The notes under the pieces are model-generated. The model had not been told where the DNA came from. It saw nothing but the letters and a program-made list of their open reading frames with translations, and did no database searches. Source: a virus (lineage: Duplodnaviria > Heunggongvirae > Uroviricota > Caudoviricetes). From it: a stretch of 64,000 bases of DNA. The DNA lies in IMG/VR virus record IMGVR_UViG_3300049596_000323, positions 1 through 64,000 of that record; one strand, given 5' to 3'. The position numbers were made by a program, and so were the translations under genes. Positions 1 through 51,686 of this stretch are shown here, piece by piece (the stretch's first letter is position 1; the number at the start of each line of letters is the position of its first letter).

Positions 1-478
1 TGTTACCTGGTTTTAATAAATATTCTTGTCTATAAGATCTAGCTATTGCATTGTTTGTTTTGTATACAGCTTGTATAAGCTCAGGCATACATGTAGGACA
101 ACCTGTTGTACATTGAGGATTGGTACAGGGTACTGTTCCACTAATGATAGGTGCTATCTGAATAGTTGTTTGAGATGCAGCTTGTGAATAGAATGAGTTA
201 GCTGATTGATAAGGATACCCTGGAATCTCAGTACACATCCAAGCTTCTCTAGCAGCATAAAAGTTATCAGGAAGCCTAGCTTGGAAGTCTTCAATATAAA
301 GAACTTGCTCAGCAATAGCATAAGTTGTCCTACCTAACTTGTTTAAACACTTGTTTAAATAAGTAGGGAAAAGCAAATCATCCACAGCTCCTGTGTCAAA
401 ATAGCTTTTTAATTCTTCTTTAACAGTTGCATAAACTGGTTCAGGAGATACAAATCTGTACTTATAATAGTATGACAT
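1..478 (-). CDS. hypothetical protein, N-terminal 159 aa only; the gene runs off the window start
   Basis: Minus-strand ATG at 476-478, then an open frame (MSYYYKYRFVSPEP...) with no stop before position 1; Cys-rich segment CTNPQCTTGCPTC. Confidence 0.4.
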   Translation of the reverse strand, partial: MSYYYKYRFVSPEPVYATVKEELKSYFDTGAVDDLLFPTYLNKCLNKLGRTTYAIAEQVLYIEDFQARLPDNFYAAREAWMCTEIPGYPYQSANSFYSQAASQTTIQIAPIISGTVPCTNPQCTTGCPTCMPELIQAVYKTNNAIARSYRQEYLLKPGN

Positions 479-4893: not shown

Positions 4894-5757
4894 TTATATA
4901 CACCCACCATCACATCTTGAAAATACGTTTAACGTTAATGTGTTTCCAATATCTCCACTTGTAACAATATATGTTGCTGAAAATAAAGTAGTAGAACCAT
5001 TACCGCATGAAGCATCTGCTATAATACCAGATGTGTATGCGTTTGCTTTATCGTCAGGATTAGTACATCCATATGTAGTGACTTCAACATTAATTGAATC
5101 ACCCATAGAAACAGCATATATACCACTTGCATTTGTACTTCTACTTTCAACAACTGAACCATTTACATATAAATCCATATTACCAATAACACCTGAACCA
5201 CTTTCATTAAAAGTCCAAGATAAGTTCGCAGTTGAAGCAGTGTTACAAACTACAGTGAGTCCATTGTAATTACATTGAGGTATAGTAGTTGTACTAGTTG
5301 TAGTGCATGGATAGTTTGCATAACAACATCCTGAATAATTCACAGAAGATAAACGAACACCAACAACTGAACCTCTTAAAATTCCACAACCTGTTACAGG
5401 TCCACCTTCTCCTCCAGATGAACATGCAATAATTCCTATAGACCCACCGTAAGGAAGATAATAATAATATGTATTTCCAGAACAATCTTGATATGATATA
5501 GTTTGACTAAATCCATCTGACATTTGATTATATACTTCAACACCTGATACACAAGGACATGGATAGTCTTGATATTTAGGAGCTCGTGTATCAGGATAAG
5601 TAGACCAAGGGCTAACTGTACCATCTATATAGTAGTTAGTACTAGCTTCTCCTTTGCTCATAATACTACCATCAAGAGGAGGAGTTGTCCCAGGCTTCTG
5701 TATATATCCCATTGTAGCAAGATCTGCTCCTGTTACTAAAAAATTACTAACTTTCAT
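4894..5757 (-). CDS. Cys-rich tail-fibre-like protein
   Basis: 287 aa; many Cys pairs (CPC, CC, CG) and a TTTSTTTIP linker; adjacent to the fibre genes. Confidence 0.35.
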   Translation of the reverse strand: MKVSNFLVTGADLATMGYIQKPGTTPPLDGSIMSKGEASTNYYIDGTVSPWSTYPDTRAPKYQDYPCPCVSGVEVYNQMSDGFSQTISYQDCSGNTYYYYLPYGGSIGIIACSSGGEGGPVTGCGILRGSVVGVRLSSVNYSGCCYANYPCTTTSTTTIPQCNYNGLTVVCNTASTANLSWTFNESGSGVIGNMDLYVNGSVVESRSTNASGIYAVSMGDSINVEVTTYGCTNPDDKANAYTSGIIADASCGNGSTTLFSATYIVTSGDIGNTLTLNVFSRCDGGCI

Positions 5758-28859: not shown

Positions 28860-29273
28860 GGGGGTGTACTGGCTTTGACAGACATGAGGCTGGTAGTATC
28901 ACATGCAAGCCTTGGAACAGGTAAACAAGTTCTAAACAATAACCGTAAAGAGTCAATCTGAGCGTGTTGAAGAAGGTGCTAGCATTATTGCTATGGCTTT
29001 CGCTTCTGAGTTAGCATTAGCTGCTTAGTCAACTGGGTGGTAACAACCTGGAAACAGAAAGTTACAAGCGTTTTCTCTATTATGTCAAAATAGAGTGGTG
29101 GTAGATAGCAAACCCTGCGATCCCAACTACTGATTAGAAGTGCTTAGGACTATGTAGTAATACATTGTAATTGCTCTAAGTAAATGTACATGAACAGCTT
29201 CAGATCTAAGCATGTAAGAATGGTATTATTATCACTTGTCTGGACAGGGGTTCAACTCCCCTCACCTCCACAA
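28860..29273 (+). ncRNA. ssrA: tmRNA (transfer-messenger RNA), phage-encoded
   Basis: The 5' GGGGGUG pairs with the 3' CACCUCC through a G3-U wobble, as in E. coli tmRNA. The 5' region carries ACUGGCUUUGAC (like GAUUCGAC). The T-arm is GGACAGGGGUUCAACUCCCCU. An internal tag ORF ends ...AFASELALAA with TAG at 29026-29028. Confidence 0.8.
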
Positions 29274-37815: not shown

Positions 37816-38487
37816 ATGTCAAGCAAATTAATTGGTATCGTGGGTGCCACTGGTACAGGAAAATCCACATCAATCAAACATTTAGATCCAAAGGAAACTT
37901 ACATCATCAACGTTGCTAAAAAGGAATTACCTTTTAAGGGAGCAGAGAAGTTGTACAATTTGGAGAGCAAGAACTACAAAGAGGTAGATGATGCAATTGA
38001 AATCACAAAGTTATTACGAGTGATTTCAGAAAAAGCTCCTCACATCAAGAACATCATTATTGAAGACTCTAATTACATTATGGGATTCAATATTGTATCT
38101 AAAGCTACAGAGGTTGGTTTTACCAAATTCACTCTAATGGCTAGAGATATGGTGGAACTATTCAGAGAAGCAAGACGCTTACGTGATGATATCAAAGTGT
38201 TCTATTTTACACACCCTGAAACTATTGAAGATGGTGGTGAGATTATAGGATATAAGATTAAAACAGCAGGTAAGTTAATTGATAATCAGATTGTTCTTGA
38301 AGGTTTGTTAACTGTGTGCTTATACACACATGTTGAAGACAACAAAGATGGCTCAGCTAATTATAATTTCTTAACTAATCGTTTTAGAAAGTATCCAGCT
38401 AAGAGTCCAGACGGTATGTTTACAGAAGTAAAGATTCCAAACAATTTACAATCAGTTGTAAATGCAATAGACGAGTATTATAATTAA
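37816..38487 (+). CDS. Sak4-like RecA-fold ATPase (AAA_24-type)
   Basis: N-terminal Walker A IGIVGATGTGKST; Walker B-like IIIEDSN; about 220 aa. Confidence 0.45.
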   Translation: MSSKLIGIVGATGTGKSTSIKHLDPKETYIINVAKKELPFKGAEKLYNLESKNYKEVDDAIEITKLLRVISEKAPHIKNIIIEDSNYIMGFNIVSKATEVGFTKFTLMARDMVELFREARRLRDDIKVFYFTHPETIEDGGEIIGYKIKTAGKLIDNQIVLEGLLTVCLYTHVEDNKDGSANYNFLTNRFRKYPAKSPDGMFTEVKIPNNLQSVVNAIDEYYN

Positions 38488-38511
38488 TCATAAACAAAAA
38501 CAGAGAAAACA

Positions 38512-39387
38512 ATGAGTAACATTGGAGGCAAAAAAAGAGAATCGCAACAGTTTGACAACAAAGAGTTTGCGAAGAAAGTAGGTTTATTTGAAGCTGAAGT
38601 AGTGACAATTAACCCAACTACAGAAGAGTACAAGGACATTCTAGGAATGGAATTGAAAGAAGACAGTAAAGCAACTGAGTATCTAAGCAAGAACAATGAT
38701 GGTAACACCATTTTGCGTGTAGATGTTTGGTTGGAAGAAGTTAAGAACAAAGACAAGTTCAAGGTGACTTTCTTCTTGGAAAACAAAGAGAAAGAAAACA
38801 AAGATGCTACTAAGAAGCAGTATATCAATGCTGTAGGTATGTGTTCTTGGGCTGATGATGTAAACAATTTACCAACATGGTTCTCAGGTAGAGAATATCG
38901 TGTAGCTTATGTAGGTGAAGAAGATTTATACAACTTCTTACGTACTTGGATGGGTAATCTTGACTTACGTGATGCTGAATCTACATTACAGATTGAGTGG
39001 TCTAAGTTAATGAAAGGTAATGTTAAAGACTTAAAGAGTCAAGTGGGTGGTGAATATGCTACAAATGTAATTGCATTAGCAGCTATCAAAACTGTAGAGA
39101 AAGAAGATGGTCCTAAGGAGTATCAAACTATCTACAACAAAGCATTCTTACCTGCATATGCCTTAAAGAACTTCAGATTACTTGATTATAGTGCATCTGA
39201 TAACTTGAAAGCAATACGTGCCAAGAAATCTAAAGATTTGAAACCTCATGAGCGTTTTGTAATTAACGTTACAGGCGAGTATGGTTGTAAAGACTTTTAT
39301 ACACTAAAAGACTTGAGAGACTATAACTCTGATGATAATCTGGTAGCATCTGACAAGGTGATTGCTGAAGATGATGGTGATTATTAA
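38512..39387 (+). CDS. hypothetical protein (ssDNA-binding partner possible, by position only)
   Basis: 291-aa ORF immediately after the Sak4-like gene. Confidence 0.35.
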   Translation: MSNIGGKKRESQQFDNKEFAKKVGLFEAEVVTINPTTEEYKDILGMELKEDSKATEYLSKNNDGNTILRVDVWLEEVKNKDKFKVTFFLENKEKENKDATKKQYINAVGMCSWADDVNNLPTWFSGREYRVAYVGEEDLYNFLRTWMGNLDLRDAESTLQIEWSKLMKGNVKDLKSQVGGEYATNVIALAAIKTVEKEDGPKEYQTIYNKAFLPAYALKNFRLLDYSASDNLKAIRAKKSKDLKPHERFVINVTGEYGCKDFYTLKDLRDYNSDDNLVASDKVIAEDDGDY

Positions 39388-39403
39388 AATATAAATCCTC
39401 AAC

Positions 39404-39435
39404 AAAAGCCTCACAGAAATGTGGGGCTTTTTTAT
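39404..39435 (+). terminator. rho-independent terminator
   Basis: AAAGCCUCAC-AGAAAU-GUGGGGCUUU hairpin followed by a U run. Confidence 0.6.
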
Positions 39436-39447
39436 TAAACATGTATC

Positions 39448-40452
39448 ATGATTAAAGGAGTGAAGAAGACAAAATTGTCTATAGAAGCGGTGCTCAGCAA
39501 GATATCTGAATATGATATATTTAGATTCTATATGCCAGATCATGATTGGAAACTTAATAGGGTTACATATTCTCCATTTAGGAAAGAGAATAATCCATCA
39601 TTTGTTATTGGTAACAAACTTGGTTATATATCATTTATAGACTTTGCTGATACAAGTTTGAGAGGTGACTGTTTTAACTTTGTACAAAAGCTGTTCATGC
39701 TACCAAATATGATAGACACACTAAAGCTTATAGATAAAGACTTTGGGTTAGGTATCAGTAATGGTAAATCAACAGAAGAGTATAAAAAGATAGTCTCTGA
39801 ATACAAACAGCCTCAGATTGAGAAGAGATACTCTATCATCCAGGTGAGTACCAGAAAGTTCACTAGTAGAGAACTTAAGTATTGGAATCAATATCACATA
39901 GATCTTCAAGACCTTAGAGATAATAATGTATATGCTATAAAGAATGTATTTCTTAATAAGAGCAAGTTTGCACTTAAAGATGAAGAAATGACATTTGGTT
40001 ATCTATATGAAGGACAATATTGGAAGATATATAGGCCATTTGAAGACAAGAAACACAAATGGATTCCTAATAATGTTCCAATCACCGTAATGGACGGTAA
40101 AGAAGATATAGTTAACTGCAGCGTAGCATTTATCAATAAGAGTAAGAAAGACTATATGGTGATGAAGAAGATATTCCCATGTAGCTGTGCTGTACAGAAT
40201 GAGGGCATAGGTTGTTTCTCAGAAGACAATGTAGAATACCTAAAAGCCAATTCTGATAGCCAGATATTAAGTTTTGACAGTGATGTCACAGGTGTAACTA
40301 ACTCACAACAAATTACTAAATTGTTTGATTTTGGTTATGCTAACGTCCCACGTAAGTATTTAGCTGAAGGGATTAAAGATTGGGCAGATCTTGCAAAAGT
40401 CCACGGATTAGAAACAATAGAAAAGTATTTAATTAACAAAAACATTTTATGA
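39448..40452 (+). CDS. DnaG-like primase (TOPRIM) with degenerate zinc-binding motif
   Basis: YSPFRKENNPSFVI resembles DnaG CPFHDEKTPSFSV but the Cys/His ligands are replaced; TOPRIM-like ILSFDSDVTG near the C-terminus. Confidence 0.45.
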   Translation: MIKGVKKTKLSIEAVLSKISEYDIFRFYMPDHDWKLNRVTYSPFRKENNPSFVIGNKLGYISFIDFADTSLRGDCFNFVQKLFMLPNMIDTLKLIDKDFGLGISNGKSTEEYKKIVSEYKQPQIEKRYSIIQVSTRKFTSRELKYWNQYHIDLQDLRDNNVYAIKNVFLNKSKFALKDEEMTFGYLYEGQYWKIYRPFEDKKHKWIPNNVPITVMDGKEDIVNCSVAFINKSKKDYMVMKKIFPCSCAVQNEGIGCFSEDNVEYLKANSDSQILSFDSDVTGVTNSQQITKLFDFGYANVPRKYLAEGIKDWADLAKVHGLETIEKYLINKNIL

Positions 40453-40596
40453 CGATACAAAACTTAAAAGAAATCATTCAAAATAATGTAGAATGGTTAG
40501 AAACCTCTGAAGGAGATGAAGTAGAATGTATAGGAATAGAAAACCTAGAAGGTATATTATCAAAATATTTTAACACAGAAATTAAATTAACACAAG

Positions 40597-41361
40597 ATGG
40601 AAATTTATAACACAACAAAAGAGTTAATTCTCAACACACCAGTTCCTGCACAGACAAGAACATATAAGCCTGTTTCACATGGTCAATTAATAGACCTTAC
40701 ATTAGATGGTATTAGCAAAGCTGGTTTCATTTTAGACAAGCAAACATACTCAGCAGCTGCTAATGGTCAGATTGCTAATGGTAGATTCTCTATCAGTAAT
40801 GTTGCAGATAGTGAGATGCAATTACAAGTTGGTTGGCAGAATAGCTACAACAAGCAACTTACATTAAAGTTTGCTATTGGTACACGTATATTAATTTGTT
40901 CTAATGGTTGTGTGTCTGGTGACTACGGTGCATTCAAGAAGAAGCATGTTGGTGAGATTCAATCTTTCACACCACAGGCTATTGGAGATTATATCAAGAC
41001 AGCTGCAGACTCATTCAAGTTGATGCAAACTCAAAGAGAGAATATGAAGCAGATTGAAATCACTAGACGTATAAAAGCTGAGTTGATTGGTAGAATGATG
41101 ATTGAAGAACAGTTCATCCAGTCTACACAGATGAACATTATTAGCAGAGAGATGACGAATCCTACACATGATTATGGTGCACCTGATAGCTTATGGGAGT
41201 TGTATAACTATACCACCTTTGCTATGAAAGAAGTACATCCTAGTCTTTGGATGGAGAATCATATCCAAGCACATAAGTTCTTTAATGATTATGCATATGA
41301 TGCTACACCAATGGATTATGAGCAAGGAGAAATAATGCTTAATCAATTATCAATATTTTAA
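40597..41361 (+). CDS. hypothetical protein
   Basis: 254-aa ORF. Confidence 0.4.
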   Translation: MEIYNTTKELILNTPVPAQTRTYKPVSHGQLIDLTLDGISKAGFILDKQTYSAAANGQIANGRFSISNVADSEMQLQVGWQNSYNKQLTLKFAIGTRILICSNGCVSGDYGAFKKKHVGEIQSFTPQAIGDYIKTAADSFKLMQTQRENMKQIEITRRIKAELIGRMMIEEQFIQSTQMNIISREMTNPTHDYGAPDSLWELYNYTTFAMKEVHPSLWMENHIQAHKFFNDYAYDATPMDYEQGEIMLNQLSIF

Positions 41362-41362
41362 T

Positions 41363-42082
41363 ATGAATTGGGAAAAATTTAAAGATCAGTTTCATGAGAG
41401 TTGGCACTTAAAGATGAGACCATTTATTGAGAGCGAAGCTTGTGATGAAATCTATAAATTTCTTAAGTCAGAGAGTCAGAGGGGCAAGAAGATTGCTCCT
41501 CTGTCTTCTAATGTCTATAGATGTTTTATGGAGACCCCACTAGATGAGCTTAAGATTGTAATGATGGGTATGGCTCCATATCACACACTTAAACAAGGAA
41601 GTCCTGTAGCAGATGGTTTATTGATGGGCTGTTCCACCACTGGTGTATTACAGCCTTCATTAGAACAGTTCTATGGAGCAATTGAAAGAGAAGTGTATAA
41701 TGGACTATGTGCTTATTGTGACAAGACTAATCCAGATGTAAGCTATCTAGCTCATCAGGGTGTATTAATGTTTAATGCATCTCTCACCACTGAGATTAAC
41801 AAAGCAGGTAGTCATATCAAACTGTGGGAACCGTTCACAAAGTATGTCATAGAGGAGATTTTAAATCCTCAACAAGTTCCTTATATATTCTTAGGCAAAG
41901 ATGCTGCACAGTATGCTAGGTATGCAAATCCATTTGTATGGAGTTTCACAACTACACATCCTGCATCAGCTAGCTATAGGAATACAGAATGGGAATCTGG
42001 AGATGTATTCAGAATGGTTAACAAGGTGATAAAAGACAATAATAATTTTCAAATTGAATGGTTAGACGGTACACCATTTTAA
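41363..42082 (+). CDS. family-1 uracil-DNA glycosylase homologue with substituted catalytic Asp
   Basis: Collinear with E. coli Ung: LKIVMMGMAPYH (GQDPYH), GVLMFNASLTT (LLLNTVLTV), HIKLWEPFTKYVIEEI (HASLGWETFTDKVI), HPASASYR (HPSPLSAHR). Confidence 0.75.
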   Translation: MNWEKFKDQFHESWHLKMRPFIESEACDEIYKFLKSESQRGKKIAPLSSNVYRCFMETPLDELKIVMMGMAPYHTLKQGSPVADGLLMGCSTTGVLQPSLEQFYGAIEREVYNGLCAYCDKTNPDVSYLAHQGVLMFNASLTTEINKAGSHIKLWEPFTKYVIEEILNPQQVPYIFLGKDAAQYARYANPFVWSFTTTHPASASYRNTEWESGDVFRMVNKVIKDNNNFQIEWLDGTPF

Positions 42083-42094
42083 ACAAAAACAATT

Positions 42095-42457
42095 ATGTAT
42101 AAAGTAAAAGTTGGTGGAGATATCCACAAAGGTGATTTAGTTGCCATATCTAATGGTAATGATTTTAGTCTTGGTATTTATTATGGTCAAGGTAGAGGTG
42201 GTACATTTCAGTATTTTACACCATCAGGAGTTGTAAGCTCTAAAATTTGGTGGGAAAAAGCAAACAAAGACTCAGCATATGCTGATCATAATAAACCTTG
42301 GAAACTTACCAGAATCTGGAAGAGTTATGTAAATACACCAAGAGACACAAGAATTCTCAAATTAAATAGAGATAATATTACAGAACAACAAGACATAGAA
42401 AACATTATTGAAGCAAAAGAAATCCTTAAAGAATTTAACATAGAAGTAAACTTTTAA
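42095..42457 (+). CDS. hypothetical protein
   Basis: 120-aa ORF. Confidence 0.4.
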   Translation: MYKVKVGGDIHKGDLVAISNGNDFSLGIYYGQGRGGTFQYFTPSGVVSSKIWWEKANKDSAYADHNKPWKLTRIWKSYVNTPRDTRILKLNRDNITEQQDIENIIEAKEILKEFNIEVNF

Positions 42458-42459
42458 TT

Positions 42460-44820
42460 ATGATCTTAGAAAAACAAACAGAAGCACACATCCTCCAAGA
42501 AGGAGAATCACAGGAAACTGTGAAAATGTCATTAGACTTAGATTCTGCACAAGTATTGATGCAGATGTTAAGTAAGAATCTATATTCAGATTCAATAGGC
42601 TCTACTATCAGAGAATGTGCATCCAATGCACTAGATAGTCACAGAAGAGCTGGGAGTGACAGACCTATTATTGTCTCATTTAAGAGAAACAATCAGGCAG
42701 ATACATATGAATTTGCTGTTGAAGATTTTGGTATTGGTTTAGATGCAGATGATGTAGTTAACATTATCAGCAAATATGGTAAATCAACCAAGCGTAACAG
42801 CAATACAGAGTTAGGTATGATGGGCTTAGGTTTCAAAGCCCCACTAGCTTACAGTTCTAGCTTCTATTTTGTAGCTAGAAAAGATGGTATGGAACGCAAG
42901 TACATGATGTACGAAGGAGAAGAAACAAATAGTATTGATCTTCTGTATGAAAAAGCTACAGAAGAACCAAATGGTGTAAAGGTGATTGTACCTGTGAACT
43001 ATTATGATAGACACAGTTTCACTAGTAAGATTAGAGAGCAATTAGCTTATTTTGAGAATGTGTATTTTGATGTAGATAATAGTATTAGTTATGCTGTTAC
43101 TAATGATTTTACAATTCACAGAGCTGAACATTTCCAATTCTCTAGTATAGCTACTAACAATTACATGCATTTATGTTTGGACAATGTTAGTTATCCAATT
43201 GACTGGGAGAAGCTTGGTATTGAAAGGATTAATATCAAGATAGCTTTACGTTTTAGTCTTAGTGATGGATTGTTCCCTACACCAAATAGAGAAGCTATCA
43301 GATATACACAGGAAGCTAAGCAAGTTATTCTTAATAAGCTAGCTCAGGTGGCAGATGTATTCATGGAGAAGTTCAATGAATCAATTTCTGATAAAGCTAA
43401 TATTGATTCTATCATGAGCTTTTATGGAGAAAGACGTAAATACTTACCAAGCTTTTATAGAAAAGAAGAAGATAGAATTGAGATTGATGAACTTCTTAAG
43501 TATGCAACTATTCCTTTGAAACAACCTAAACTTGAAGGTGTAGATTTGTTAGATCTTAAGAGAATGGCTGAGCAGAACAAGGAGTATATGTTAGCTGAGT
43601 ATCAAATAAAGTTTAGATACCAAGGAAACAGATTCAATAATGCAAAGAATTATTGGGGTGGTAACCTAAGAATTCAAGACATTAGTTCTTACAATGCTGG
43701 TAACATTTATCTATTCTCTGACAGACTTGCTAAGAATAAGCAAGATTACATGAGAAGCTTACTTGGTGATAGCAGCAAATGTCACTTGTTTGTAAAGAAA
43801 GAAAAGCCTTTTCAATTAATGAAGGGTGAATCTATTGATTACAATAAGTATTATCATTCTATTTTAGGTCTTAAGAACTATCCAAAGAGTCAATGGAGAC
43901 AACTCATCACAGAATTCCAGTATGTAATTAGTTTATATTCTAAAGATTTCATTGATGTAGATGCTATTGATATTCCACAAACATGGATAGATACTCAGAA
44001 AGCTAAGAGAATGAAGGTGTTATCTAATCCTGTAACAGTGAATGGTGTTAAGAAGGTTAGAATGAAAGGTGAATTCTCTGGTAAGGTTGCTACCAAAACA
44101 GAGATTACATATTCTGATAGACATTCTAAGTTTGTTCCTACAACATTTAAGTTAGAAGATGTTCATAAAGTTAATAAACTGCATGTGTATGCTAAAGAAG
44201 AGCAAAGAGAGAAGTTAGATAAGCTCTGGTCTTTATTTAACGATCATGCAAACTTTGTTATTGTTGCTCAAGCTACAATAGATAATTTACAGAAAGCAGA
44301 TTTACATAACTGGATAACATTAGAAAAATTTATGGAAGGAAAAAACAGACCATTTAGAACAATGGCTACACAGTTTCTTGTTGAGAGAATGACAAACAAG
44401 TATACTAACACTTTTAAAAGAACTGAGGTTGTTAAGCAAATCTCTACAGATCTTTATGATAAGTTAGAAGTGATAAGACAGTACGATAACAAGTATTCTA
44501 AAAACTATTGTGACAATAAGACTAAAGATATAGTGTTAGAGCTAGCTTTAGAACAAAACTTATTTGACCAGGAAATACTAGTTGTGTACAAGCAGGTAGA
44601 AGAAGTATTTAACAAACTTACATTCTTAAATCCACTAATGGGACAAATTAATTCTTATTATGGTGGAGTTGATAAAGATTTATTAAAAGCTTATGTTGAT
44701 CTATTTAAATATAATAAACACAAGGTGAACCTTGAGCACTACACTATAAAGCTCAATGAAGATGCATCCTTGGAAGAAGTATTAACAGAAGACACAATTG
44801 AAGAATTACAAACAATTTAA
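42460..44820 (+). CDS. Hsp90/HtpG-like GHKL ATPase chaperone
   Basis: N-domain parallels HtpG: NLYSDSIGSTIRECASNALDS (LYSNKEIFLRELISNASDA), VEDFGIGLD (ISDNGVGMT), ISKYGKSTKR (IAKSGTKSF), LGMMGLGFKA (IGQFGVGFYS). The middle domain carries LFPTPNREAIRY, like Hsp90 LPLNISREMLQQ. Confidence 0.75.
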   Translation: MILEKQTEAHILQEGESQETVKMSLDLDSAQVLMQMLSKNLYSDSIGSTIRECASNALDSHRRAGSDRPIIVSFKRNNQADTYEFAVEDFGIGLDADDVVNIISKYGKSTKRNSNTELGMMGLGFKAPLAYSSSFYFVARKDGMERKYMMYEGEETNSIDLLYEKATEEPNGVKVIVPVNYYDRHSFTSKIREQLAYFENVYFDVDNSISYAVTNDFTIHRAEHFQFSSIATNNYMHLCLDNVSYPIDWEKLGIERINIKIALRFSLSDGLFPTPNREAIRYTQEAKQVILNKLAQVADVFMEKFNESISDKANIDSIMSFYGERRKYLPSFYRKEEDRIEIDELLKYATIPLKQPKLEGVDLLDLKRMAEQNKEYMLAEYQIKFRYQGNRFNNAKNYWGGNLRIQDISSYNAGNIYLFSDRLAKNKQDYMRSLLGDSSKCHLFVKKEKPFQLMKGESIDYNKYYHSILGLKNYPKSQWRQLITEFQYVISLYSKDFIDVDAIDIPQTWIDTQKAKRMKVLSNPVTVNGVKKVRMKGEFSGKVATKTEITYSDRHSKFVPTTFKLEDVHKVNKLHVYAKEEQREKLDKLWSLFNDHANFVIVAQATIDNLQKADLHNWITLEKFMEGKNRPFRTMATQFLVERMTNKYTNTFKRTEVVKQISTDLYDKLEVIRQYDNKYSKNYCDNKTKDIVLELALEQNLFDQEILVVYKQVEEVFNKLTFLNPLMGQINSYYGGVDKDLLKAYVDLFKYNKHKVNLEHYTIKLNEDASLEEVLTEDTIEELQTI

Positions 44821-44831
44821 AAAACAAAAAC

Positions 44832-46397
44832 ATGCTAAGTTTAAAATGGTTTAAAAGTGCTATTGAACGCACAATTGAAAAAGTAGTAGAAAACAAAATT
44901 GAACAAGCGTTCAATGAATTGGATAAAGAAGAAGGGGCTCAGGCTCCTTCTTTTAATTCTGCTTTCAATCCCAATGCTAATTGGAATTCAAGCAGTACAT
45001 GGACAGGGCCAACTAGTTACACAAAGCCCTATATAAACATCAAAATGGTTAATGATACATTGACTATTGTATTGAATGATGGCAATATCATTACCAAAAC
45101 TCCAGCTACAGCAGATGATTTTACTGCAGCTAAGCTATGTAAATCAGAAGCATGTTTACTAGATCTTGTTAGTACACAAGAGGTTAAAGACCAAAGAAGA
45201 CAAGCTGAAGCTGAGTATGAGAAAGCTAAAGCTGTTCAGAAAGGTGCTGAGTTCCTAGCTAAGTTTGATGATTTTGAGATGAAACACGGTAGTTTATATC
45301 TTAAGGGTATCAACAGAAGTATCCCACCTTTGATGGTGGAAGAGTTCTTAGAAATCATTGGTAGTTATTCTTATAATGGAATGGCTGATATAGATGAAAT
45401 GAATGCTCTTGTAATAGAAGATGAAGAGTATCAAGCACTTAAGCGTTTCTTCATGTGGTGTTGCTTGAATCCAAGAGCTGAAGTGGCAGATAAGTTATAT
45501 GGCTTCTTGAAGAAGAATAGCTTCAGCATCACTAAACAAGGATTCTTTGTAGCATTACGTAATGTTGTTACACTTCATGGTTCTACTGAGCTTGTGCACT
45601 TTGTAAGTAATGCTTATAATAAGGTGAAAGCTGTATGGAAGAAGAAACCAGATGATTATACTATCTTCTTAAAAGATGGTGAATATAAAATGGTTCATGA
45701 AGATGCTATGTATAAAAAAGAAACATGTACATGTTCTTATTGTGATGGTACAGGAACTATTCCTGAGTGTGATGAATGGGAAGATAGTGAAGAGTGTCCA
45801 GAGTGTAATGGTACAGGCGAATATGAAGATCTTGTTCTTGCAATTGAAGGTGAAAACCTTGGTAACTTAACTGAGCTATATCTTGATTTGCCTAATAGAG
45901 CAGAGAATAGATTCACAGATGCTCATACAAGAACATTTGACATCAGAATTGGTAGACCAGTAAGTATGCCTATGGAAAAGTGCAGATGGAATACTGATGA
46001 CTGTGGTGCTGAAGGTTTACACTTTACATCTGATGAGATTCATTATGTAGGTTGTGGTGACACATCTGTACTTGTACTTATCAATCCAATGAAGGTTGTA
46101 GGTATTGGTGAGAGTAAGGGTAGATGCTATGAGTATTTACCAATTATGACTGTGCCACGTGAAGAAGCAACAGAAATCTTACATGATTTAGATTTTGATA
46201 CATTACAGTTAGATGAGTCTTATGCGATTCGCGAATTGCAAAACTTGGCTGAGAAAGCTAAAGAAGGATTCACTGCAGAAGCTAAGAAGTATGATTTCAA
46301 CTTACCTGCTCTATCTGCTGTAGAAGTGTATACAATTGTTAGGAGTCTTGATGAAATTAAAGAAGAAATTTCAGGAAGAATCGTTACAATTGATTAA
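44832..46397 (+). CDS. protein with DnaJ-type CxxCxGxG zinc-finger pair
   Basis: CSYCDGTG and CPECNGTG repeats within CTCSYCDGTGTIPECDEWEDSEECPECNGTGEY; directly downstream of the Hsp90-like gene. Confidence 0.45.
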   Translation: MLSLKWFKSAIERTIEKVVENKIEQAFNELDKEEGAQAPSFNSAFNPNANWNSSSTWTGPTSYTKPYINIKMVNDTLTIVLNDGNIITKTPATADDFTAAKLCKSEACLLDLVSTQEVKDQRRQAEAEYEKAKAVQKGAEFLAKFDDFEMKHGSLYLKGINRSIPPLMVEEFLEIIGSYSYNGMADIDEMNALVIEDEEYQALKRFFMWCCLNPRAEVADKLYGFLKKNSFSITKQGFFVALRNVVTLHGSTELVHFVSNAYNKVKAVWKKKPDDYTIFLKDGEYKMVHEDAMYKKETCTCSYCDGTGTIPECDEWEDSEECPECNGTGEYEDLVLAIEGENLGNLTELYLDLPNRAENRFTDAHTRTFDIRIGRPVSMPMEKCRWNTDDCGAEGLHFTSDEIHYVGCGDTSVLVLINPMKVVGIGESKGRCYEYLPIMTVPREEATEILHDLDFDTLQLDESYAIRELQNLAEKAKEGFTAEAKKYDFNLPALSAVEVYTIVRSLDEIKEEISGRIVTID

Positions 46398-46402
46398 ATT
46401 TG

Positions 46403-46429
46403 TAGTCCCAGGGAGAAATCCCTGGGCTA
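46403..46429 (+). terminator. terminator-like GNRA hairpin
   Basis: CCCAGGGA-GAAA-UCCCUGGG stem-loop after the gene; the downstream U tract is weak. Confidence 0.35.
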
Positions 46430-46442
46430 TTAAATATAATAT

Positions 46443-46859
46443 ATGATAAAGAAAAAAGCAAACAAAAGAAAGCCTGCTGCTCCTAGAAAACCAAGAGTTC
46501 CTAAAACTAGGAATGCTGGTACTATGACAGAGTCAGGGTTCTGGAGTTTCATTAGAAGTGGATTGAGACAGAAATCTAGATGGTGGAAACCTATTAGTGA
46601 ATGTAAATTAAAAGCTCGTAGAGCTTACAAAGGTCCTAGTAAAAGACAAAAGTTTGAATACAAATGTGCTTGTTGTGGAGATTGGTTCCCAGAGAAACTG
46701 GTAAATGTAGATCATATCACCCCTGCAGGTTCATTAAACTGTGCTCAAGACTTACCAGGATTTGTAGAAAGATTGTTCTGTGAACAAGAAAACTTACAAG
46801 TGCTATGTGAAGCATGCCATAACATTAAAACAAAAAAAGATAAAGATGAAAGAGATTAA
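46443..46859 (+). CDS. HNH endonuclease
   Basis: CACCGDWF...VDHITPAG...CEACHNIKT: Cys pairs plus the HNH His/Asn pattern; very basic N-terminus. Confidence 0.65.
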   Translation: MIKKKANKRKPAAPRKPRVPKTRNAGTMTESGFWSFIRSGLRQKSRWWKPISECKLKARRAYKGPSKRQKFEYKCACCGDWFPEKLVNVDHITPAGSLNCAQDLPGFVERLFCEQENLQVLCEACHNIKTKKDKDERD

Positions 46860-47094
46860 AGTAAAATCAGACTTTGGAGGAAGAGTTCACCTACGTGACT
46901 TTGAAGTACAGAAGTCTATTGATGATAACGAATCAGTCAAAATTAAATATGGAATTGACTTTATGGTGTTGACACCAGATGAGTTAGTTAGTAAACGTAC
47001 TTATACATCAAAAGATAAGTATAAAAGTAAAATAGGGGGGCCAGATTATTTCTTATATGGATATAAGTGGGAACCTGAAGAAATAGATTATTAA
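46847..47094 (+). CDS. hypothetical protein
   Basis: Internal Met (MKEIKVKSDFGG) used; the longest ORF starts at 46780, inside the HNH gene. Confidence 0.35.
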
Positions 47095-47095
47095 T

Positions 47096-47338
47096 ATGGA
47101 AAATGCAATAACTGTAAGCATCAACAAAAAACCTTCTTTCACTGAAATATGGCATGAAGGATCTGTTGAATTTAATGACAAAACATACATGTTCTGGCTT
47201 ATCAATCCAAGAGGGTTTGATGAAAATGGACGTGAGTATGAAATGGAAGTGAGATGGTGGTTTAAACAAGTACCCATGGAGATTAGAAGAATGAGTGAAA
47301 CAATTATTAATGATTTTAAACAAAACAAACATGATTAG
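47096..47338 (+). CDS. hypothetical protein
   Basis: 80-aa ORF. Confidence 0.35.
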   Translation: MENAITVSINKKPSFTEIWHEGSVEFNDKTYMFWLINPRGFDENGREYEMEVRWWFKQVPMEIRRMSETIINDFKQNKHD

Positions 47339-48374
47339 CGGACAAACAAAAACAGAAGCTCAGTACAGAGCAGTTAAGATGGACAGTAGTTCAAGCTTAA
47401 AAGAATTCTCAACAAATCGTAAGAAGTATCACAAAAAGTACATTCTTAATGAACACGTTGAAGATGAAGACAGTAAAGCTGCCGTTACAGGTAGAGTGGT
47501 TGAAACATTGTTGTTAGAACCAGAAGAGTTTGACAACCGTTTCCACATGTCAGTTGTTAGCAGTGCACCAACAGCAATGATGTTAGATTTCGTAGAAGCA
47601 TTGTGTAAGCATACACTTGCAGCTACAAATGAAGACGGTGTAGTAACTAGAGCGTTTGAAGAATTAACTAGAGATGCACATGTTGATTCAGGATTCAAGA
47701 TCAAATTAGATGCTGTACTTGGTAAGTTCTTAGGAACTGATGCTGAGGTGTATTTCAAAGAGATGGTTGAAGTGAGACGTAGAGGATTAACTGTTGTTAC
47801 AATGCAGGAAGTAGATAATGCTACTAAGATTGTAGAAGAGTTAAAGACTAATGATTTCATAGCATCTATTGTAAACTTAGTTAATAGTGCTAGATATTCT
47901 GTATATAACCAATTACAAGTTGAGGGATATGAAGTGTTTGGTCATTTCTTTAAGTCTATGATGGACAAAATGATTGTAGATCATGAAGCAAAGACAGTTC
48001 AGGTGTATGATTTGAAATGTACTTGGTCTGTAGAGAACTTCTATGATGAGTATTACTTGTACAGAAGAGCCTACCTCCAAGGATTTCTATATCATAAAGC
48101 TGCAGAGTTTTGGGCTAGTGAAATGGGCTATGGAGATTACAAAATACTTTATCCTAAGTTTATTGTTTGTGACAGTACAAATTATAGCTCTCCATTAATT
48201 TATAAAATGTCTGATATAAATATGGTGGATGCTCGTGCTGGATTTGAGCACAAAGGAAGAGAGTATCCAGGTGTTGCTTCTTTAATAGAAGACCTTCAAT
48301 GGGCTATTGAGAATGATAAATGGAATATTTCTAGAGAAAACTATTTAAATAATGGTGTAGTAAAATTAGGTTAA
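47331..48374 (+). CDS. PD-(D/E)xK-type nuclease candidate
   Basis: MMDKMIVDHEAKTVQVYDLKCTW fits the D...(D/E)xK arrangement; start set at the third Met to limit overlap. Confidence 0.35.
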   Translation: MISGQTKTEAQYRAVKMDSSSSLKEFSTNRKKYHKKYILNEHVEDEDSKAAVTGRVVETLLLEPEEFDNRFHMSVVSSAPTAMMLDFVEALCKHTLAATNEDGVVTRAFEELTRDAHVDSGFKIKLDAVLGKFLGTDAEVYFKEMVEVRRRGLTVVTMQEVDNATKIVEELKTNDFIASIVNLVNSARYSVYNQLQVEGYEVFGHFFKSMMDKMIVDHEAKTVQVYDLKCTWSVENFYDEYYLYRRAYLQGFLYHKAAEFWASEMGYGDYKILYPKFIVCDSTNYSSPLIYKMSDINMVDARAGFEHKGREYPGVASLIEDLQWAIENDKWNISRENYLNNGVVKLG

Positions 48375-48922
48375 TGAAATTTGATAAAACTGTTACAACA
48401 ATATTTATTGTTCCTACATTAAGTATTAGTAGAGATAAATTGCGAGATAATATATTTATCAATGGTTATATCAAAGATGGTAGAAGAGATGTACAGTATG
48501 AAAATGCTGTATATCTCCTCTTTAAACCTGAAAACATTGATAAATTTAAAGAATTTTTAGATGAAGAATATGAGCGTACCAAATCTATTATAGATGATTA
48601 TGACTATGAAGATGGTTATGTGGTAGTAGTTTATGTACTTAATGAAAGATTAAAGTCTGACTTTGAGTTAATTAAACAAGGTAAATATTCTAAAACATCT
48701 GTTAAATTCCAGGGTATATTCCCAAAATCATTTACAAGTCCAGATGAAAACTATTCTACTAAAATAAGTCTTCAATTCCGTATCTTTAATAAAACTCAAG
48801 ATTTAAAGAAATTTTGGGAAGAAAAGCTTGATATGGAACTAGATGATGATATGGAAGTTTGGGATGGATTCTTTGAAGAAAACGAAACTCTTAATTTAGA
48901 TAAATTTAAAGAAAATGTATAA
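48374..48922 (+). CDS. hypothetical protein
   Basis: 182-aa ORF. Confidence 0.4.
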   Translation: MKFDKTVTTIFIVPTLSISRDKLRDNIFINGYIKDGRRDVQYENAVYLLFKPENIDKFKEFLDEEYERTKSIIDDYDYEDGYVVVVYVLNERLKSDFELIKQGKYSKTSVKFQGIFPKSFTSPDENYSTKISLQFRIFNKTQDLKKFWEEKLDMELDDDMEVWDGFFEENETLNLDKFKENV

Positions 48923-49139
48923 TCATGAAGTATTAGAAGAGCTTGTTAACCAGTTTGGTGAAGAAGCTACTGTCCTCTTCTGTAAAATGGAGAGTGTAAA
49001 GAATGGTATGCTTTTTGATAGTGTAGAAGAAAACAAACAACACTATCCAGAACCAAACGAATGGTCTTATGAAAGAGACTGGTGGAAAGAAAATGGTAAG
49101 AAATTAGAATCACGTAACTTAAAAACAAATTATGAATAG
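48915..49139 (+). CDS. hypothetical protein
   Basis: 74-aa ORF. Confidence 0.3.
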   Translation: MYNHEVLEELVNQFGEEATVLFCKMESVKNGMLFDSVEENKQHYPEPNEWSYERDWWKENGKKLESRNLKTNYE

Positions 49140-49500
49140 TCAAGAATTATTAGAAAATTATGGCAAAGCAGCCAGTGTCGTTAAAGATTTTTATTTAGGT
49201 AAATTCCTAGATTCTATAGAAGATTCAGAAAACCTTCCAGAAAACTTTAAAGATTTTGCTAAAGAGCAGGGTATAGACAATGATACCGTGGCTAAAATGA
49301 TAGATGCAATGCCTAGAGCATTGTTTGATGCATTTGATGCTCATGAGATTTATATTCAAATCACTGTAGATCTTGAGAATAATTGTTTCAGATATTCATT
49401 TGATGGAGGACAAGTAGAAAGTAATGACTTTCTTACAAGAATAGCAGCAGAAACTAGAGCAATTGAAGCAGCATTTGAAATCTTAAATGAGAAGTTATGA
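49132..49500 (+). CDS. hypothetical protein
   Basis: 122-aa ORF. Confidence 0.35.
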   Translation: MNSQELLENYGKAASVVKDFYLGKFLDSIEDSENLPENFKDFAKEQGIDNDTVAKMIDAMPRALFDAFDAHEIYIQITVDLENNCFRYSFDGGQVESNDFLTRIAAETRAIEAAFEILNEKL

Positions 49501-49748
49501 GTGATCAAATAGTATTGGAAGTGATTGAGAAGTATGCTCAGCGTAGTGGAATAGGACAAACCAAATACGGTACCACTCTAGAAGCTAACAATAAGGATAA
49601 CTATCTCAAGCATCTCCAGGAAGAATTGATGGACGCAACACTGTATTTGCAGAAGATTATGGACCAAAATAAGGAAATAACTAAGTTGGTTAAGAATCAT
49701 TCAAATGATGCAGAATTAGGACATAAAATAAGAGAATTGATTAGATAG
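49497..49748 (+). CDS. hypothetical protein
   Basis: 83-aa ORF. Confidence 0.35.
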   Translation: MSDQIVLEVIEKYAQRSGIGQTKYGTTLEANNKDNYLKHLQEELMDATLYLQKIMDQNKEITKLVKNHSNDAELGHKIRELIR

Positions 49749-49776
49749 AATTTTCTAATTTTCTTGGTTTATAAAA

Positions 49777-49811
49777 ATGAGGGTTGTACATTTGCAACCC
49801 TCATTTTTTTA
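49777..49811 (+). terminator. rho-independent terminator
   Basis: AUGAGGGUUG-loop-CAACCCUCAU 10-bp stem followed by U7. Confidence 0.6.
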
Positions 49812-49832
49812 CATATATTAAAACAAACAAAC

Positions 49833-51686
49833 ATGGATTTAGGATTAGATGCCTTAGGAAAGATTACTGTGTTTAGCAAGTACGCTAAGCACAATCCCCA
49901 GCTACAAAGAAGAGAAACTTGGGATGAAATAGTGGATAGATATCAAGTAATGATGATCAAGAAGTATCCTAAATTAGAATTAGCAATTGTAGAAAGTGCT
50001 AAGTTTATCAGAGAAAAGAAGATTTTGCCATCTATGAGAGCTTTGCAGTTTGCAGGTCCAGCAATGGAAGTGAACAACGCAAGAGGTTACAACTGTGCTT
50101 ACTTACCTGTAGATAGCTTATATAGTTTCAGTGAGACTATGTTTTTATTACTAGGAGGTTCAGGTGTAGGTTTTTCTGTACAAAAGCATCATGTAGAGCA
50201 GTTACCAGCTATTAAGAAACAAGAAACTTACAAGCATCGTAACTATCTTATAGAAGATTCTATTATGGGCTGGGCTGACTCAGTAAAGATGTTAATGAAG
50301 TTTTACTTTGAAGGTGGTCAAAAGCCTAAGTTTGACTTTAGAGCTATTAGACATAAAGGAGCTAGACTAGTAACAGCTGGTGGTAAAGCCCCAGGTCCAG
50401 AACCATTAAAGATTGCATTAGCTCATATTGATGCTATCATGGAAAGAAAAGAAGATGGTAGTAAACTATCTCCTTTAGAAGCTCATGATATTATGTGTCA
50501 TATTGCTAACTCAGTGCTAGCAGGTGGTATTAGAAGAAGTGCTATGATTAGTCTATTCAGCCATGATGATGAGGAAATGATTACATGTAAGTATGGCAAC
50601 TGGTGGGAACTAAACGAACAACGTGGTAGAAGTAATAACTCTGCAGTGTTAAAGAGAGGTGAAGTAGATGAAGCTGAATTTATGGCTTTATGGAAAAGAA
50701 TTGAAGCATCAGGAAGTGGTGAACCAGGTATCTATTGGTCTAACGACCTAGATTGGGGAACTAATCCTTGTTGTGAGATTGGATTACGTCCTTTCCAGTT
50801 CTGTAATCTATGTGAAGTGAATGTAAGCGATGTTGAGAATCAAGAAGATCTTAACAACCGTGTAGCAGTAGCTGCATTCTTTGGTACATTACAAGCAGGG
50901 TTTTATGACTTTCATTACCTACGTCCTATTTGGTCTAAAACAACCCAAAAAGACGCTTTATTAGGAATTGGTATGACAGGTATAGGAAGTGGAGAAATCC
51001 TTAAATATGACCTAGAACTAGTAGCTAATACAGCTAAGACAGTAAATAGAGATATCTCTGGATTTATTGGCACCAACGAAGCAGCTCGTATTACATGTAT
51101 TAAACCTTCAGGAACAACTAGTTTGGTCTTAGGTACAGCTAGTGGTATTCATGCTTGGCATGCTCCATACTACTTACGTACAATGAGATTTAACAAGAAT
51201 GAAGCTATTGCATTATACTTAATGATTAACCATCCTGAATTGTGCGAAGATGATGTGTTACGTCCTACAGATACAGTTTGTGTACGTATTCCTGTTAAAG
51301 CACCAGAAGGATCTATTTTCCGTACAGAGTCTCCAATAGATACATTAGAGCGTGTTAAGAAGTTCTCTACAGAATGGGTTAAACCAGGTCATATCAATGG
51401 GGCTAATACACACAATGTAAGTGCTACTGTTTCTATTGCTGATGAGTGGAAAGAAGTGGGTGCCTGGATGTGGGATAACAGAGAGACGTATAATGGCTTG
51501 TCTGTACTACCATTCTTTGGTGGCTCATATCAACAAGCTCCATTTGAAGATATCACAGAAGAAGAATACAACAAACGTATTGCTTCTGTACAAGAAATAG
51601 ATTTAACAAAGGTGATAGAGATGGATGACAACGTTGATTTTGGTCAAGTTGCAGCCTGTGCAGGAGGTGCTTGTGAAATCGCCTAA
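49833..51686 (+). CDS. ribonucleotide reductase, class II-like (monomeric)
   Basis: Active-site region GTNPCCEIGL...FQFCNLCEVNV (NPCxEI...CNL); C-terminal redox Cys pair CAGGACEIA; start placed at MDLGL after the upstream terminator. Confidence 0.6.
   Translation: MDLGLDALGKITVFSKYAKHNPQLQRRETWDEIVDRYQVMMIKKYPKLELAIVESAKFIREKKILPSMRALQFAGPAMEVNNARGYNCAYLPVDSLYSFSETMFLLLGGSGVGFSVQKHHVEQLPAIKKQETYKHRNYLIEDSIMGWADSVKMLMKFYFEGGQKPKFDFRAIRHKGARLVTAGGKAPGPEPLKIALAHIDAIMERKEDGSKLSPLEAHDIMCHIANSVLAGGIRRSAMISLFSHDDEEMITCKYGNWWELNEQRGRSNNSAVLKRGEVDEAEFMALWKRIEASGSGEPGIYWSNDLDWGTNPCCEIGLRPFQFCNLCEVNVSDVENQEDLNNRVAVAAFFGTLQAGFYDFHYLRPIWSKTTQKDALLGIGMTGIGSGEILKYDLELVANTAKTVNRDISGFIGTNEAARITCIKPSGTTSLVLGTASGIHAWHAPYYLRTMRFNKNEAIALYLMINHPELCEDDVLRPTDTVCVRIPVKAPEGSIFRTESPIDTLERVKKFSTEWVKPGHINGANTHNVSATVSIADEWKEVGAWMWDNRETYNGLSVLPFFGGSYQQAPFEDITEEEYNKRIASVQEIDLTKVIEMDDNVDFGQVAACAGGACEIA

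Follow-up and report, generated by a model that had tools for sequence, protein, structure and literature searches.

The locus examined here raises the question of whether a phage can encode its own dedicated chaperone pair. The window, a 64,000-nucleotide stretch of Caudoviricetes DNA (positions 1 to 64,000 of IMG/VR record IMGVR_UViG_3300049596_000323), carries two adjacent genes, ORF1 and ORF2 (Table 1), which a sequence-only reading had interpreted as an Hsp90/HtpG-like chaperone followed by a DnaJ-type zinc-finger protein. Judged by sequence, the two are homologous to rIIA and rIIB, whose founding members come from T4. They do not make up a chaperone pair of the Hsp90/DnaJ kind; the ATPase domain of rIIA nevertheless resembles the ATP-binding domain of Hsp90. 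Paired rIIA and rIIB genes are very common in phages, which they help to overcome bacterial ‘suicide’ defences. The best joint explanation of the two genes, which we consider very probable, is an rII module carried by a crAss-like phage, with a probable counter-defence role and a proposed ATP-driven mechanism.

Table 1. Features of the rIIA-rIIB pair, with positions in the window and residue numbers in the respective protein.
Feature	Position	Strand	Remarks
ORF1, rIIA homologue	42460..44820	+	786 aa; ATG start, TAA stop
GHKL (Bergerat-fold) ATPase domain of rIIA	42547..43044	+	about aa 30-195
N box, RECASNALDSH	42610..42642	+	R51, E52, N56, D59 and H61 invariant in 11 diverse rIIA
G1 box, DFGIG	42724..42738	+	D89, G91 and G93 invariant in 11 diverse rIIA
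ATP-lid segment YGKSTK to G2 box GMMGLGFK	42775..42837	+	S109, K111, G119, G122, G124 and K126 invariant in 11 diverse rIIA
Second, transducer-like rIIA domain	43045..43389	+	about aa 196-310: beta strands, loop, long helix (284-307)
Loop P-T-P-N-R277-E278, candidate ATP-sensing ‘switch’ Arg	43276..43293	+	R277 and E278 invariant, P275 nearly so, in 11 diverse rIIA
rIIA C-terminal region	43477..44817	+	aa 340-786, confidently modelled mixed alpha/beta
ORF2, rIIB homologue	44832..46397	+	521 aa; start 11 nt past the ORF1 stop
N-terminal helix (conserved W-F-K) and low-complexity linker	44832..45026	+	in place of the T4 rIIB HTH
rIIB N-terminal/central homology region	45027..45566	+	aa 66-245; aligns with cr116_1 rIIB aa 7-155 (E 5e-9) and T4 rIIB 185-217
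Insert of ~110 aa	45567..45902	+	aa 246-357; gap in both pairwise alignments (T4, cr116_1) and in the multiple alignment
Putative zinc knuckle, CSYCDGTG … CPECNGTG	45732..45818	+	two CxxCxGxG units, C301-SYCDGTG and C322-PECNGTG
Conserved rIIB C-terminal core	45903..46181	+	aa 358-450; G-L-H, N-P-x-x-V-V and K-x-R motifs

ORF1 matches PHROG 612 (‘RIIA’) at E 1.3e-58, with aa 1-749 aligned to positions 1-722 of the 725-position profile, and T4 rIIA is assigned to this same PHROG at E 9e-250. BLASTP aligns ORF1 with T4 rIIA directly (aa 1-331 with 1-336, E 1e-18), hhalign gives the two a probability of 97.9%, and Foldseek returns full-length matches between ORF1 and rIIA models. Across 11 diverse rIIA proteins, 21 columns are invariant, comprising all GHKL boxes together with Y245, R277 and E278, and the rIIA-specific invariant residues beyond the GHKL boxes (L37, Y42, H61, K126, Y245 and R277-E278) are all found in ORF1. 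An rIIB gene lies directly downstream, as expected for rIIA. The earlier description of Hsp90 homologues as very unusual in phages is wrong for this protein: homologues of ORF1 are detected by tblastn in 2,620 of 50,697 phage records, and the annotated ones among the 30 matches listed are named rIIA.

The motifs of ORF1 were located at L41-Y-S43, R51-E-C-A-S-N-A-L-D-S-H61, D89-F-G-I-G93, Y106-G-K-S-T-K111, G119-M-M-G-L-G-F-K126 and L271-FPTPNREAIRY-282, and those quoted by the sequence-only reading for both ORFs are all present; its ‘GTK lid’ actually reads GKSTK. The ORF1 motifs do not vary among 72 close homologues or among 11 rIIA proteins of unrelated phages, and the motif set of the two ORFs is far above chance. 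The ATPase domain matches GHKL profiles with its N, G1 and G2 boxes intact; within the N box, E52 is presumably the general base and N56 a Mg ligand, roles predicted from what is known of GHKL proteins. No other part of ORF1 is modelled with so little confidence as this domain (pLDDT about 50-75), and the low pLDDT of the lid segment at residues 104-127 fits a mobile lid. In the second domain, the R277 loop aligns with ‘APSREA’ of T4 rIIA and also with the ‘SAGKES’ switch-Lys loop of Topo VI-B. As to the proposed equivalence with the Hsp90 middle-domain catalytic loop, two methods, hhalign and HMMER, align N-R-E with the HtpG loop ‘NVSR336E’ and place R277 on R336, but only weakly (E 0.014-0.035) and with a score that 27 of 3000 shuffles reach (p 0.009).

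ORF2 matches PHROGs 609, 11221 and 36818, all ‘RIIB’, with PHROG 609 covering aa 357-441 of the core at E 1.6e-14. BLASTP aligns it with T4 rIIB at 8e-7 and 3e-4 (the latter segment being aa 213-245) and with the rIIB of the crAss-like phage cr116_1 at 3e-13 and 5e-9 (the latter being aa 73-245). In the core, D363, G395, H397, P419, V423, K429 and R431 are invariant, T4 included; in the central region, G84, F206, P214, L222, F225, G237 and V245 are invariant, and the N-P…L..FL…G-F-F pattern upstream of the core is present. The N-terminus is modelled by AF2 as a helix over residues 2-31 followed by disorder, and its ‘WFK’ is kept in environmental homologues. T4 rIIB has sub-threshold HTH_7 and HTH_28 matches at aa 7-50; the profile search gave no HTH match in ORF2, and crAss-like rIIB likewise lacks an N-terminal HTH, so this domain is not family-defining for rIIB. 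The first part of the insert (…AVWKKKP…) is common to environmental homologues, and its middle is hypervariable. Alignment makes ORF2 an rIIB with a clade-specific insert that breaks into its fold and bears one putative zinc knuckle. The AF2 model of ORF2 is poor (pLDDT 50), so neither a fold nor anything structural about the display of the knuckle is claimed; Foldseek returned one significant match, probably another rIIB, with small ‘DnaJ-like’ phage proteins among the non-significant ones.

Within the knuckle, C301, C304, C322, C325, G308, G327 and G329 are invariant in 61 close homologues of ORF2, and the two CxxCxGxG units probably form a single Zn(Cys)4 site. The knuckle belongs to a narrow clade only, occurring in two of 105 full-length representatives of 50%-identity clusters, and both T4 and crAss-like rIIB are without it. 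Its Pfam matches, Anti-TRAP at 18.4 bits and DnaJ_CXXCXGXG at 13.7 bits against a cut-off of 32.7, are both sub-threshold. ORF2 gives no Pfam DnaJ match and has no HPD tripeptide, no Pfam or NCBIfam match to the DnaJ C-terminal client-binding domains is found outside the knuckle, and it carries two repeats against the four, in two zinc centres, of DnaJ. Membership of the DnaJ family was rejected on these grounds; the earlier description of the gene as DnaJ-type is right about the repeats and wrong about the gene, which is rIIB. The likeliest role of the knuckle is that of a small structural or contact element carried on a variable loop at the rIIB surface, as opposed to client binding in the manner of DnaJ.

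ORF1 and ORF2 lie on the same strand within a block of replication genes whose order is that of the Crassvirales replication module, and the terminase of this phage is crAss-like; a search of the phage collection turned up no near-identical DNA. The same rIIA-to-rIIB adjacency is seen in seven other phages (Dorin, SUSP2, Litunavirus, Frozen, Samisti12, a Demerecviridae phage and cr116_1), and in RB43 the two are fused as a single protein. The 46 promoter-like sites do not exceed the 53.6 expected by chance, and operon boundaries are for that reason left undrawn. The T4 rII proteins have been called membrane-associated; no membrane segments were found in ORF1 or ORF2, the highest 19-residue Kyte-Doolittle mean being 1.2.

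Knock-down of rII in five phages, whose modules share <40% identity, sensitised each to lambda RexAB; the modules of T4, MM02, EdH4, SUSP1 and N4 are needed on hosts with Rex-type exclusion, and infection of hosts without Rex is unaffected by the knock-downs (PMC11879866). rIIA has been described as a counter-defence GHKL ATPase with a variable C-terminus (PMC7824862). rIIB can also trigger defence, as with a gasdermin system (PMC10312443), and its net role is therefore context-dependent. By homology with those five modules, the present pair is probably not required for growth in itself, its likely role being to shield the infection from Rex-type abortive infection mounted by the host or its prophages. 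In the mechanism proposed here, rIIA would bind ATP in the Bergerat pocket through E52, N56, D89 and the G119-x-x-G-x-G lid, and Arg277 on the second-domain loop would complete the active site in the manner of the Hsp90/HtpG catalytic Arg or the Topo VI-B switch Lys. ATP-driven closing and opening would then be relayed to the large C-terminal region of rIIA, acting with rIIB, and the rIIA-rIIB complex would keep a defence sensor or effector from firing. A literature search returned no paper reporting ATP binding or hydrolysis for any rIIA, and none relevant to rIIA/rIIB structure or to a link between rIIA and Hsp90.

Were ORF1 an Hsp90/HtpG chaperone and ORF2 a DnaJ-like zinc-finger co-chaperone, the pair would serve virion-protein folding or a takeover of host proteostasis. 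A profile from 72 close homologues was shallow (Neff 1.7), did not separate HtpG from MutL (6.6% vs 5.3% probability) and ranked only Topo VI-B in the PDB, so the comparison called for a profile built from 11 distant rIIA proteins. With the latter, the PDB ranking is TRAP1 (6.6e-12), GRP94 (1.8e-10), HtpG (6e-10) and Topo VI-B (2.8e-8), and all 11 N-termini match the NCBIfam ‘HSP90 family protein’ and the sacsin domain. The assignment of the N-terminal ~190 residues to a Bergerat/GHKL ATPase domain is supported, with Hsp90-family N-domains as its nearest solved relatives by profile. To this the chaperone interpretation can add the alignment of the R277 and R336 loops (p about 0.009) and the two CxxCxGxG units with their weak DnaJ and Anti-TRAP matches. 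However, the NCBIfam Hsp90 match spans about 100 residues at 28-30 bits against a cut-off of 455, Pfam HSP90 (PF00183, the middle and C-terminal dimerisation regions) finds nothing in ORF1 while scoring 424 bits on E. coli HtpG, and the 450-residue C-terminal region of ORF1 matches no Hsp90 domain. Hsp90 membership of ORF1 was rejected on the missing PF00183 match and on scores far under curated cut-offs, so that the claimed Hsp90 likeness is kept for the N-domain and given up for the protein. ORF2 has two of four repeats and lacks a J domain, an HPD and a DnaJ C-terminal domain, its knuckle is absent from 103 of 105 related clusters, and homologous modules serve counter-defence and are otherwise dispensable (PMC11879866). 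Nothing was found in favour of a dedicated chaperone pair; as a statement of family membership this interpretation is already largely refuted, and overall we regard it as very improbable.

The primase, UDG-like, HNH and PD-(D/E)XK exonuclease genes that neighbour the pair would suit an action on DNA, with rIIA as a Topo VI-B/MutL/MORC-like clamp on replication or recombination intermediates, rIIB as a DNA-binding or regulatory partner, and the knuckle in contact with nucleic acid. With ORF1 alone as the query, Topo VI-B heads the PDB and NCBIfam matches; two-domain GHKL structures align with the ORF1 model over 190-270 residues, T4 rIIB shows its sub-threshold HTH matches, and Iyer et al. treated rIIB as a transcription factor. 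Yet ORF2 has no HTH, profile search detected no nuclease, Toprim or DNA-binding domain in ORF1, both proteins are net acidic, and the published rII phenotype is RexAB escape, not replication (PMC11879866); an action on DNA is accordingly improbable. The PHROG category ‘lysis’ and the product names ‘RIIA/RIIB lysis inhibitor’ would instead favour a true lysis-timing device in direct control of holin or endolysin, but the name derives from the rapid-lysis plaque phenotype, knock-downs have no effect in hosts without Rex (PMC11879866), and the pair, in which no membrane segments were found, sits in the early/replication block and does not adjoin lysis genes. We consider such a device the least probable of these explanations.

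Beyond the assignment of the pair to an rII counter-defence module, the whole rIIA family may be an offshoot of the Hsp90/sacsin GHKL branch that kept an Hsp90-type N-domain and catalytic Arg loop (R277), an idea we advance tentatively and think rather unlikely. If true, rII function, now 70 years old as a subject, would be that of an ATP-driven Hsp90-like clamp and not a membrane ‘plug’; jointly with rIIB, the rIIA clamp would remodel or hold its protein target, a sensor or an effector of defence, and the rIIB of this clade would have gained the zinc knuckle as an extra contact surface. E52 and R277 provide concrete mutation targets (E52A, R277A) for the rII mechanism. The invariance of the Arg-Glu loop and the top rank of Hsp90 for the ATPase domain hold across the rIIA family and are not special to this window. 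What the pair contributes is a divergent rII module from a crAss-like lineage that is abundant and uncultured, and an rIIB that tolerates a hypervariable insert, here with a putative zinc knuckle. For annotation, caution is advised: rIIA resembles Hsp90 at the motif level, and ‘phage Hsp90’ calls need an rIIA check first. On the matter of names, some database entries for rIIA proteins are already called ‘HSP90 family’.

Compared with the Hsp90 family (HtpG, TRAP1, GRP94), ORF1 shares the Bergerat N-domain, including the pre-N-box segment L-Y-S…R-E-x-x-x-N-A-x-D, and possibly an equivalent catalytic Arg loop, whereas the PF00183 middle/C-terminal dimerisation region is undetectable in it. Its structural similarity to Hsp90 is no greater than that to type II topoisomerases or MutL, and the biology differs, rIIA being a counter-defence protein with an rIIB partner. 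Topo VI-B and MORC-type GHKL ATPases, which lead the PDB matches of ORF1 as a single sequence, resemble it in the GHKL domain, in a second domain whose loop gives a basic residue to the ATP site, and in a long helix, but no H2TH, CW or S5-type domain is recognised by sequence in ORF1; moreover, no Topo VI-A partner is present here, and the C-terminal region is unrelated. The units of ORF2, ~17 residues apart, are of the CxxCxGxG type found in the DnaJ Cys-rich domain and Anti-TRAP, and a single Zn(Cys)4 site could arise from the two, as it does in Anti-TRAP or half a DnaJ domain. Unlike DnaJ, ORF2 has two units instead of four and lacks the J domain, G/F region and DnaJ C-terminal domains; its units sit in a variable loop of rIIB, and the DnaJ and Anti-TRAP matches are all sub-threshold.

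T4 rIIA is colinear with ORF1 for about 335 residues starting at Met1, where the two are 23% identical (E 1e-18), and the two share the GHKL boxes, a Y-P motif, the P-[SN]-R-E loop, an rIIB gene next in line, and a PHROG that spans their length and C-terminal region. Their C-terminal halves, in contrast, are not alignable pairwise, and ORF1 lies in a crAss-like replication module whereas T4 rIIA lies at the end of the T4 genome. ORF2 is about 200 aa longer than the rIIB of T4 or cr116_1; it begins with a helix and low-complexity linker where T4 rIIB has an HTH, and it carries a ~110-aa insert with a putative zinc knuckle, an insert that the other two lack. With T4 rIIB and cr116_1 rIIB (‘protector from prophage-induced early lysis’), ORF2 shares its central region, its C-terminal core and its position after rIIA.

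ORF1, the 786-aa reading frame, is a homologue of rIIA. It matches the PHROG 612 profile ('RIIA') over its full length (aa 1-749, E 1.3e-58), a family that also contains T4 rIIA (E 9e-250), and BLASTP aligns it colinearly with T4 rIIA from Met1 (aa 1-331 against 1-336, E 1e-18), a relationship to which hhalign assigns 97.9% probability. The AlphaFold model of ORF1 (mean pLDDT 73) matches predicted rIIA structures across their whole length. A sequence-only reading had described ORF1 as an Hsp90/HtpG-like chaperone, and all the motifs it quoted are indeed found in ORF1 and in the downstream ORF2. However, when 11 rIIA N-termini representing at least seven phage lineages are aligned, the 21 invariant columns include all the 'Hsp90 motifs' of that reading, together with Y245 and the R277-E278 pair of a second-domain loop; the motifs thus characterise the rIIA family. 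Nor are such proteins rare in phages, as that reading had supposed: of 50,697 phage records, 2,620 yield a tblastn match to ORF1, and among the 30 matches listed, those with a functional annotation are all named rIIA. Few phage genes are as widespread as rIIA and rIIB.

The resemblance of rIIA to Hsp90 concerns its ATPase domain. The Pfam HSP90 model gives no match to ORF1, compared with 424 bits for E. coli HtpG, and the NCBIfam 'HSP90 family protein' model scores 28-30 bits on rIIA, covering ~100 residues, against a cut-off of 455; membership of ORF1 in the Hsp90 family was rejected on these grounds. It also speaks against membership that a PDB search with ORF1 alone, or with a shallow profile built from its close homologues, gives no sequence matches other than Topo VI-B and MORC2, and that the shallow profile leaves HtpG and MutL indistinguishable. 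In contrast, when a profile of 11 diverse rIIA N-termini is searched against the PDB, the top 34 sequences are all Hsp90-family (TRAP1 6.6e-12, GRP94 1.8e-10, HtpG 6e-10), followed by Topo VI-B (2.8e-8) and then all others (>1.5e-6). The Hsp90-family matches span the entire N-domain, including the segment ahead of the N box. Local hhalign likewise gives 96.6% for HtpG (E 4.8e-10) versus 88.6% for MutL (E 2.6e-6), and NCBIfam models for the Hsp90 family and for sacsin each match 11/11 N-termini, those for Topo VI-B 6/11 and those for MutL 2/11. The resemblance of the rIIA ATPase domain to the Hsp90 N-domain is thus real, and it is a property of the whole rIIA family; to that extent the sequence-only reading is supported. 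The same Hsp90 reading appears in public databases, where the rIIA homologues BFVD K4I3N1 (Escherichia phage EC6) and A0A8S5ULM6 are labelled 'Molecular chaperone, HSP90 family' or 'HSP90 family protein'.

The loop with R277 is a possible counterpart of the Hsp90 middle-domain catalytic loop. Both hhalign and HMMER place HtpG R336, the catalytic arginine, on R277, aligning P-[SN]-R277-E with N-V-S-R336-E and the helix that follows, but the match is weak (E 0.014-0.035) and its score was reached in 27 of 3000 shuffles. It is the sole second-domain alignment to HtpG with either program, and it is colinear with the N-domain match. A weak alignment also links the R277 loop to the switch-Lys loop of Topo VI-B. 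These alignments are suggestive rather than conclusive; they are read as a 'switch' loop of GHKL (Bergerat-fold) ATPases, probably homologous across Hsp90, Topo VI-B and rIIA.

ORF2, in turn, is rIIB: it matches three PHROGs labelled 'RIIB' at aa 355-450, and BLASTP aligns it with T4 rIIB at aa 361-435 (8e-7) and 213-245 (3e-4), and with rIIB of the uncultured crAss-like phage cr116_1 at aa 358-512 (3e-13) and 73-245 (5e-9). Neither comparison includes aa 246-357, which marks this segment as an insert of ~110 aa in ORF2. A multiple alignment shows that environmental homologues share the first part of the insert and that its middle is hypervariable; the putative zinc knuckle, formed by two CxxCxGxG units, lies within the variable part. 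Its four cysteines are invariant in 61 close homologues, and the two units occur in just 2 of 105 full-length 50%-identity cluster representatives, the two closest relatives. The knuckle had been taken as the mark of a DnaJ-type partner, but profile and motif searches of ORF2 found no J domain, HPD or DnaJ C-terminal domain, and its DnaJ_CXXCXGXG and Anti-TRAP matches are both sub-threshold. Neither the DnaJ assignment nor the idea of a dedicated chaperone pair stands: the genes are rIIA followed by rIIB. The knuckle most plausibly serves as a small structural or contact element specific to its clade, a minor variation on the known rII pair.

Features of the rIIA/rIIB locus and of other parts of the window (motif positions in amino acids)
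Feature	Position	Strand	Remarks
ORF1	42460-44820	+	786 aa, ATG-to-TAA
ORF1 motifs	LYS 41-43; RECASNALDSH 51-61; DFGIG 89-93	+	translated sequence
ORF1 motifs	YGKSTK 106-111; GMMGLGFK 119-126; LFPTPNREAIRY 271-282	+	translated sequence
ORF2	44832-46397	+	521 aa, start 11 nt past ORF1
ORF2 motifs	CSYCDGTG 301-308; CPECNGTG 322-329	+	translated sequence
Terminator-like hairpin	44927-44954	+	12-bp hairpin, then T-rich tail
HNH endonuclease	46443-46859	+	directly 3' of rIIB
PD-(D/E)XK/RecE-like exonuclease	47295-48374	+	a bit further downstream of rIIB
tmRNA, full-length	28860-29273	+	ARAGORN; predicted tag peptide VKSQSERVEEGASIIAMAFASELALAA
Tail-fibre gene, collagen-like repeats	5757-7619	-	PHROG tail-fibre and 'collagen like minor tail' matches, aa 114-271

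The window is a phage genome, with genes for a large terminase, portal, major head protein, collagen-like tail fibre, DNA polymerase and ribonucleotide reductase. The nearest relatives of the terminase are in Leptolyngbya phage Lbo-JY46 (40%), Cellulophaga phages phi17:2/phi4:1 and Crassvirales. No Shine-Dalgarno-like sequence precedes the start of ORF1 or ORF2 (42440-42462 and 44790-44834 inspected), and the upstream stretches are A-rich (AAAAACAAAAACATG); such starts may be compatible with a Bacteroidota-type or cyanobacterial host, to which the terminase relatives also point. The strand opposite the two genes holds short ORFs only. The terminator-like hairpin lies ~95 nt into ORF2, in its variable N-terminal linker; 11 such sites occur in 38000-50000 against 3.6 expected, the majority on the non-coding strand. 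The tmRNA, located just 5' of the DNA polymerase gene, scores 88 bits against Rfam RF00023 (gathering score 47; model positions 1-374 covered), and the tail-fibre gene coincides with the window's only GC-rich stretch (GC 0.42 vs ~0.33). No near-identical DNA was found in the phage collection searched; metagenomes contain an identical ORF1 and thousands of relatives at 67-92% identity, on contigs of up to ~135 kb.

rII modules from five phages, <40% identical, are dispensable on plain E. coli and required on cells expressing lambda RexAB (PMC11879866). By itself, rIIB is toxic and sets off a bacterial gasdermin system (PMC10312443), and another paper treats rIIA as a counter-defence GHKL ATPase whose C-terminal domain is variable (PMC7824862). 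By homology, the window's pair probably has a counter-defence role. In a mechanism drawn from GHKL enzymology rather than from rII protein data, ATP would close rIIA, with R277 completing the active site; closure would be signalled to the rIIA C-terminal region, and rIIA would act jointly with rIIB. The sole reading with wider reach would make rIIA a descendant of the Hsp90 branch that works as an Hsp90-like clamp.

rIIA is likewise followed by rIIB in phages of Rhodococcus, Streptomyces, Escherichia, Pseudomonas, Erwinia and Salmonella, as well as in cr116_1. In Escherichia phage RB43 (BFVD Q56C47), the two are a single fused RIIA-RIIB protein of 1,049 aa. PHROG 609 (1,055 positions, labelled 'RIIB') is a profile of such fusions; rIIA proteins therefore match its first 310 positions and could receive a wrong rIIB label. 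In cr116_1 (MT774389.1, 1327-4533), rIIA is split into a 125-aa N-terminal GHKL fragment and a 565-aa remainder, parted by an 'intron-encoded endonuclease' gene, and in Pseudomonas phage vB_Pae575P-3 rIIA is also annotated as two pieces. The window's rIIA and rIIB genes neighbour those for a primase, a DUF932 protein, a UDG-like protein, an HNH endonuclease and a PD-(D/E)XK-type exonuclease, and the same gene set flanks rIIA/rIIB in cr116_1. There too the HNH and exonuclease genes lie 3' of rIIB, but past the UDG gene and three hypothetical genes.
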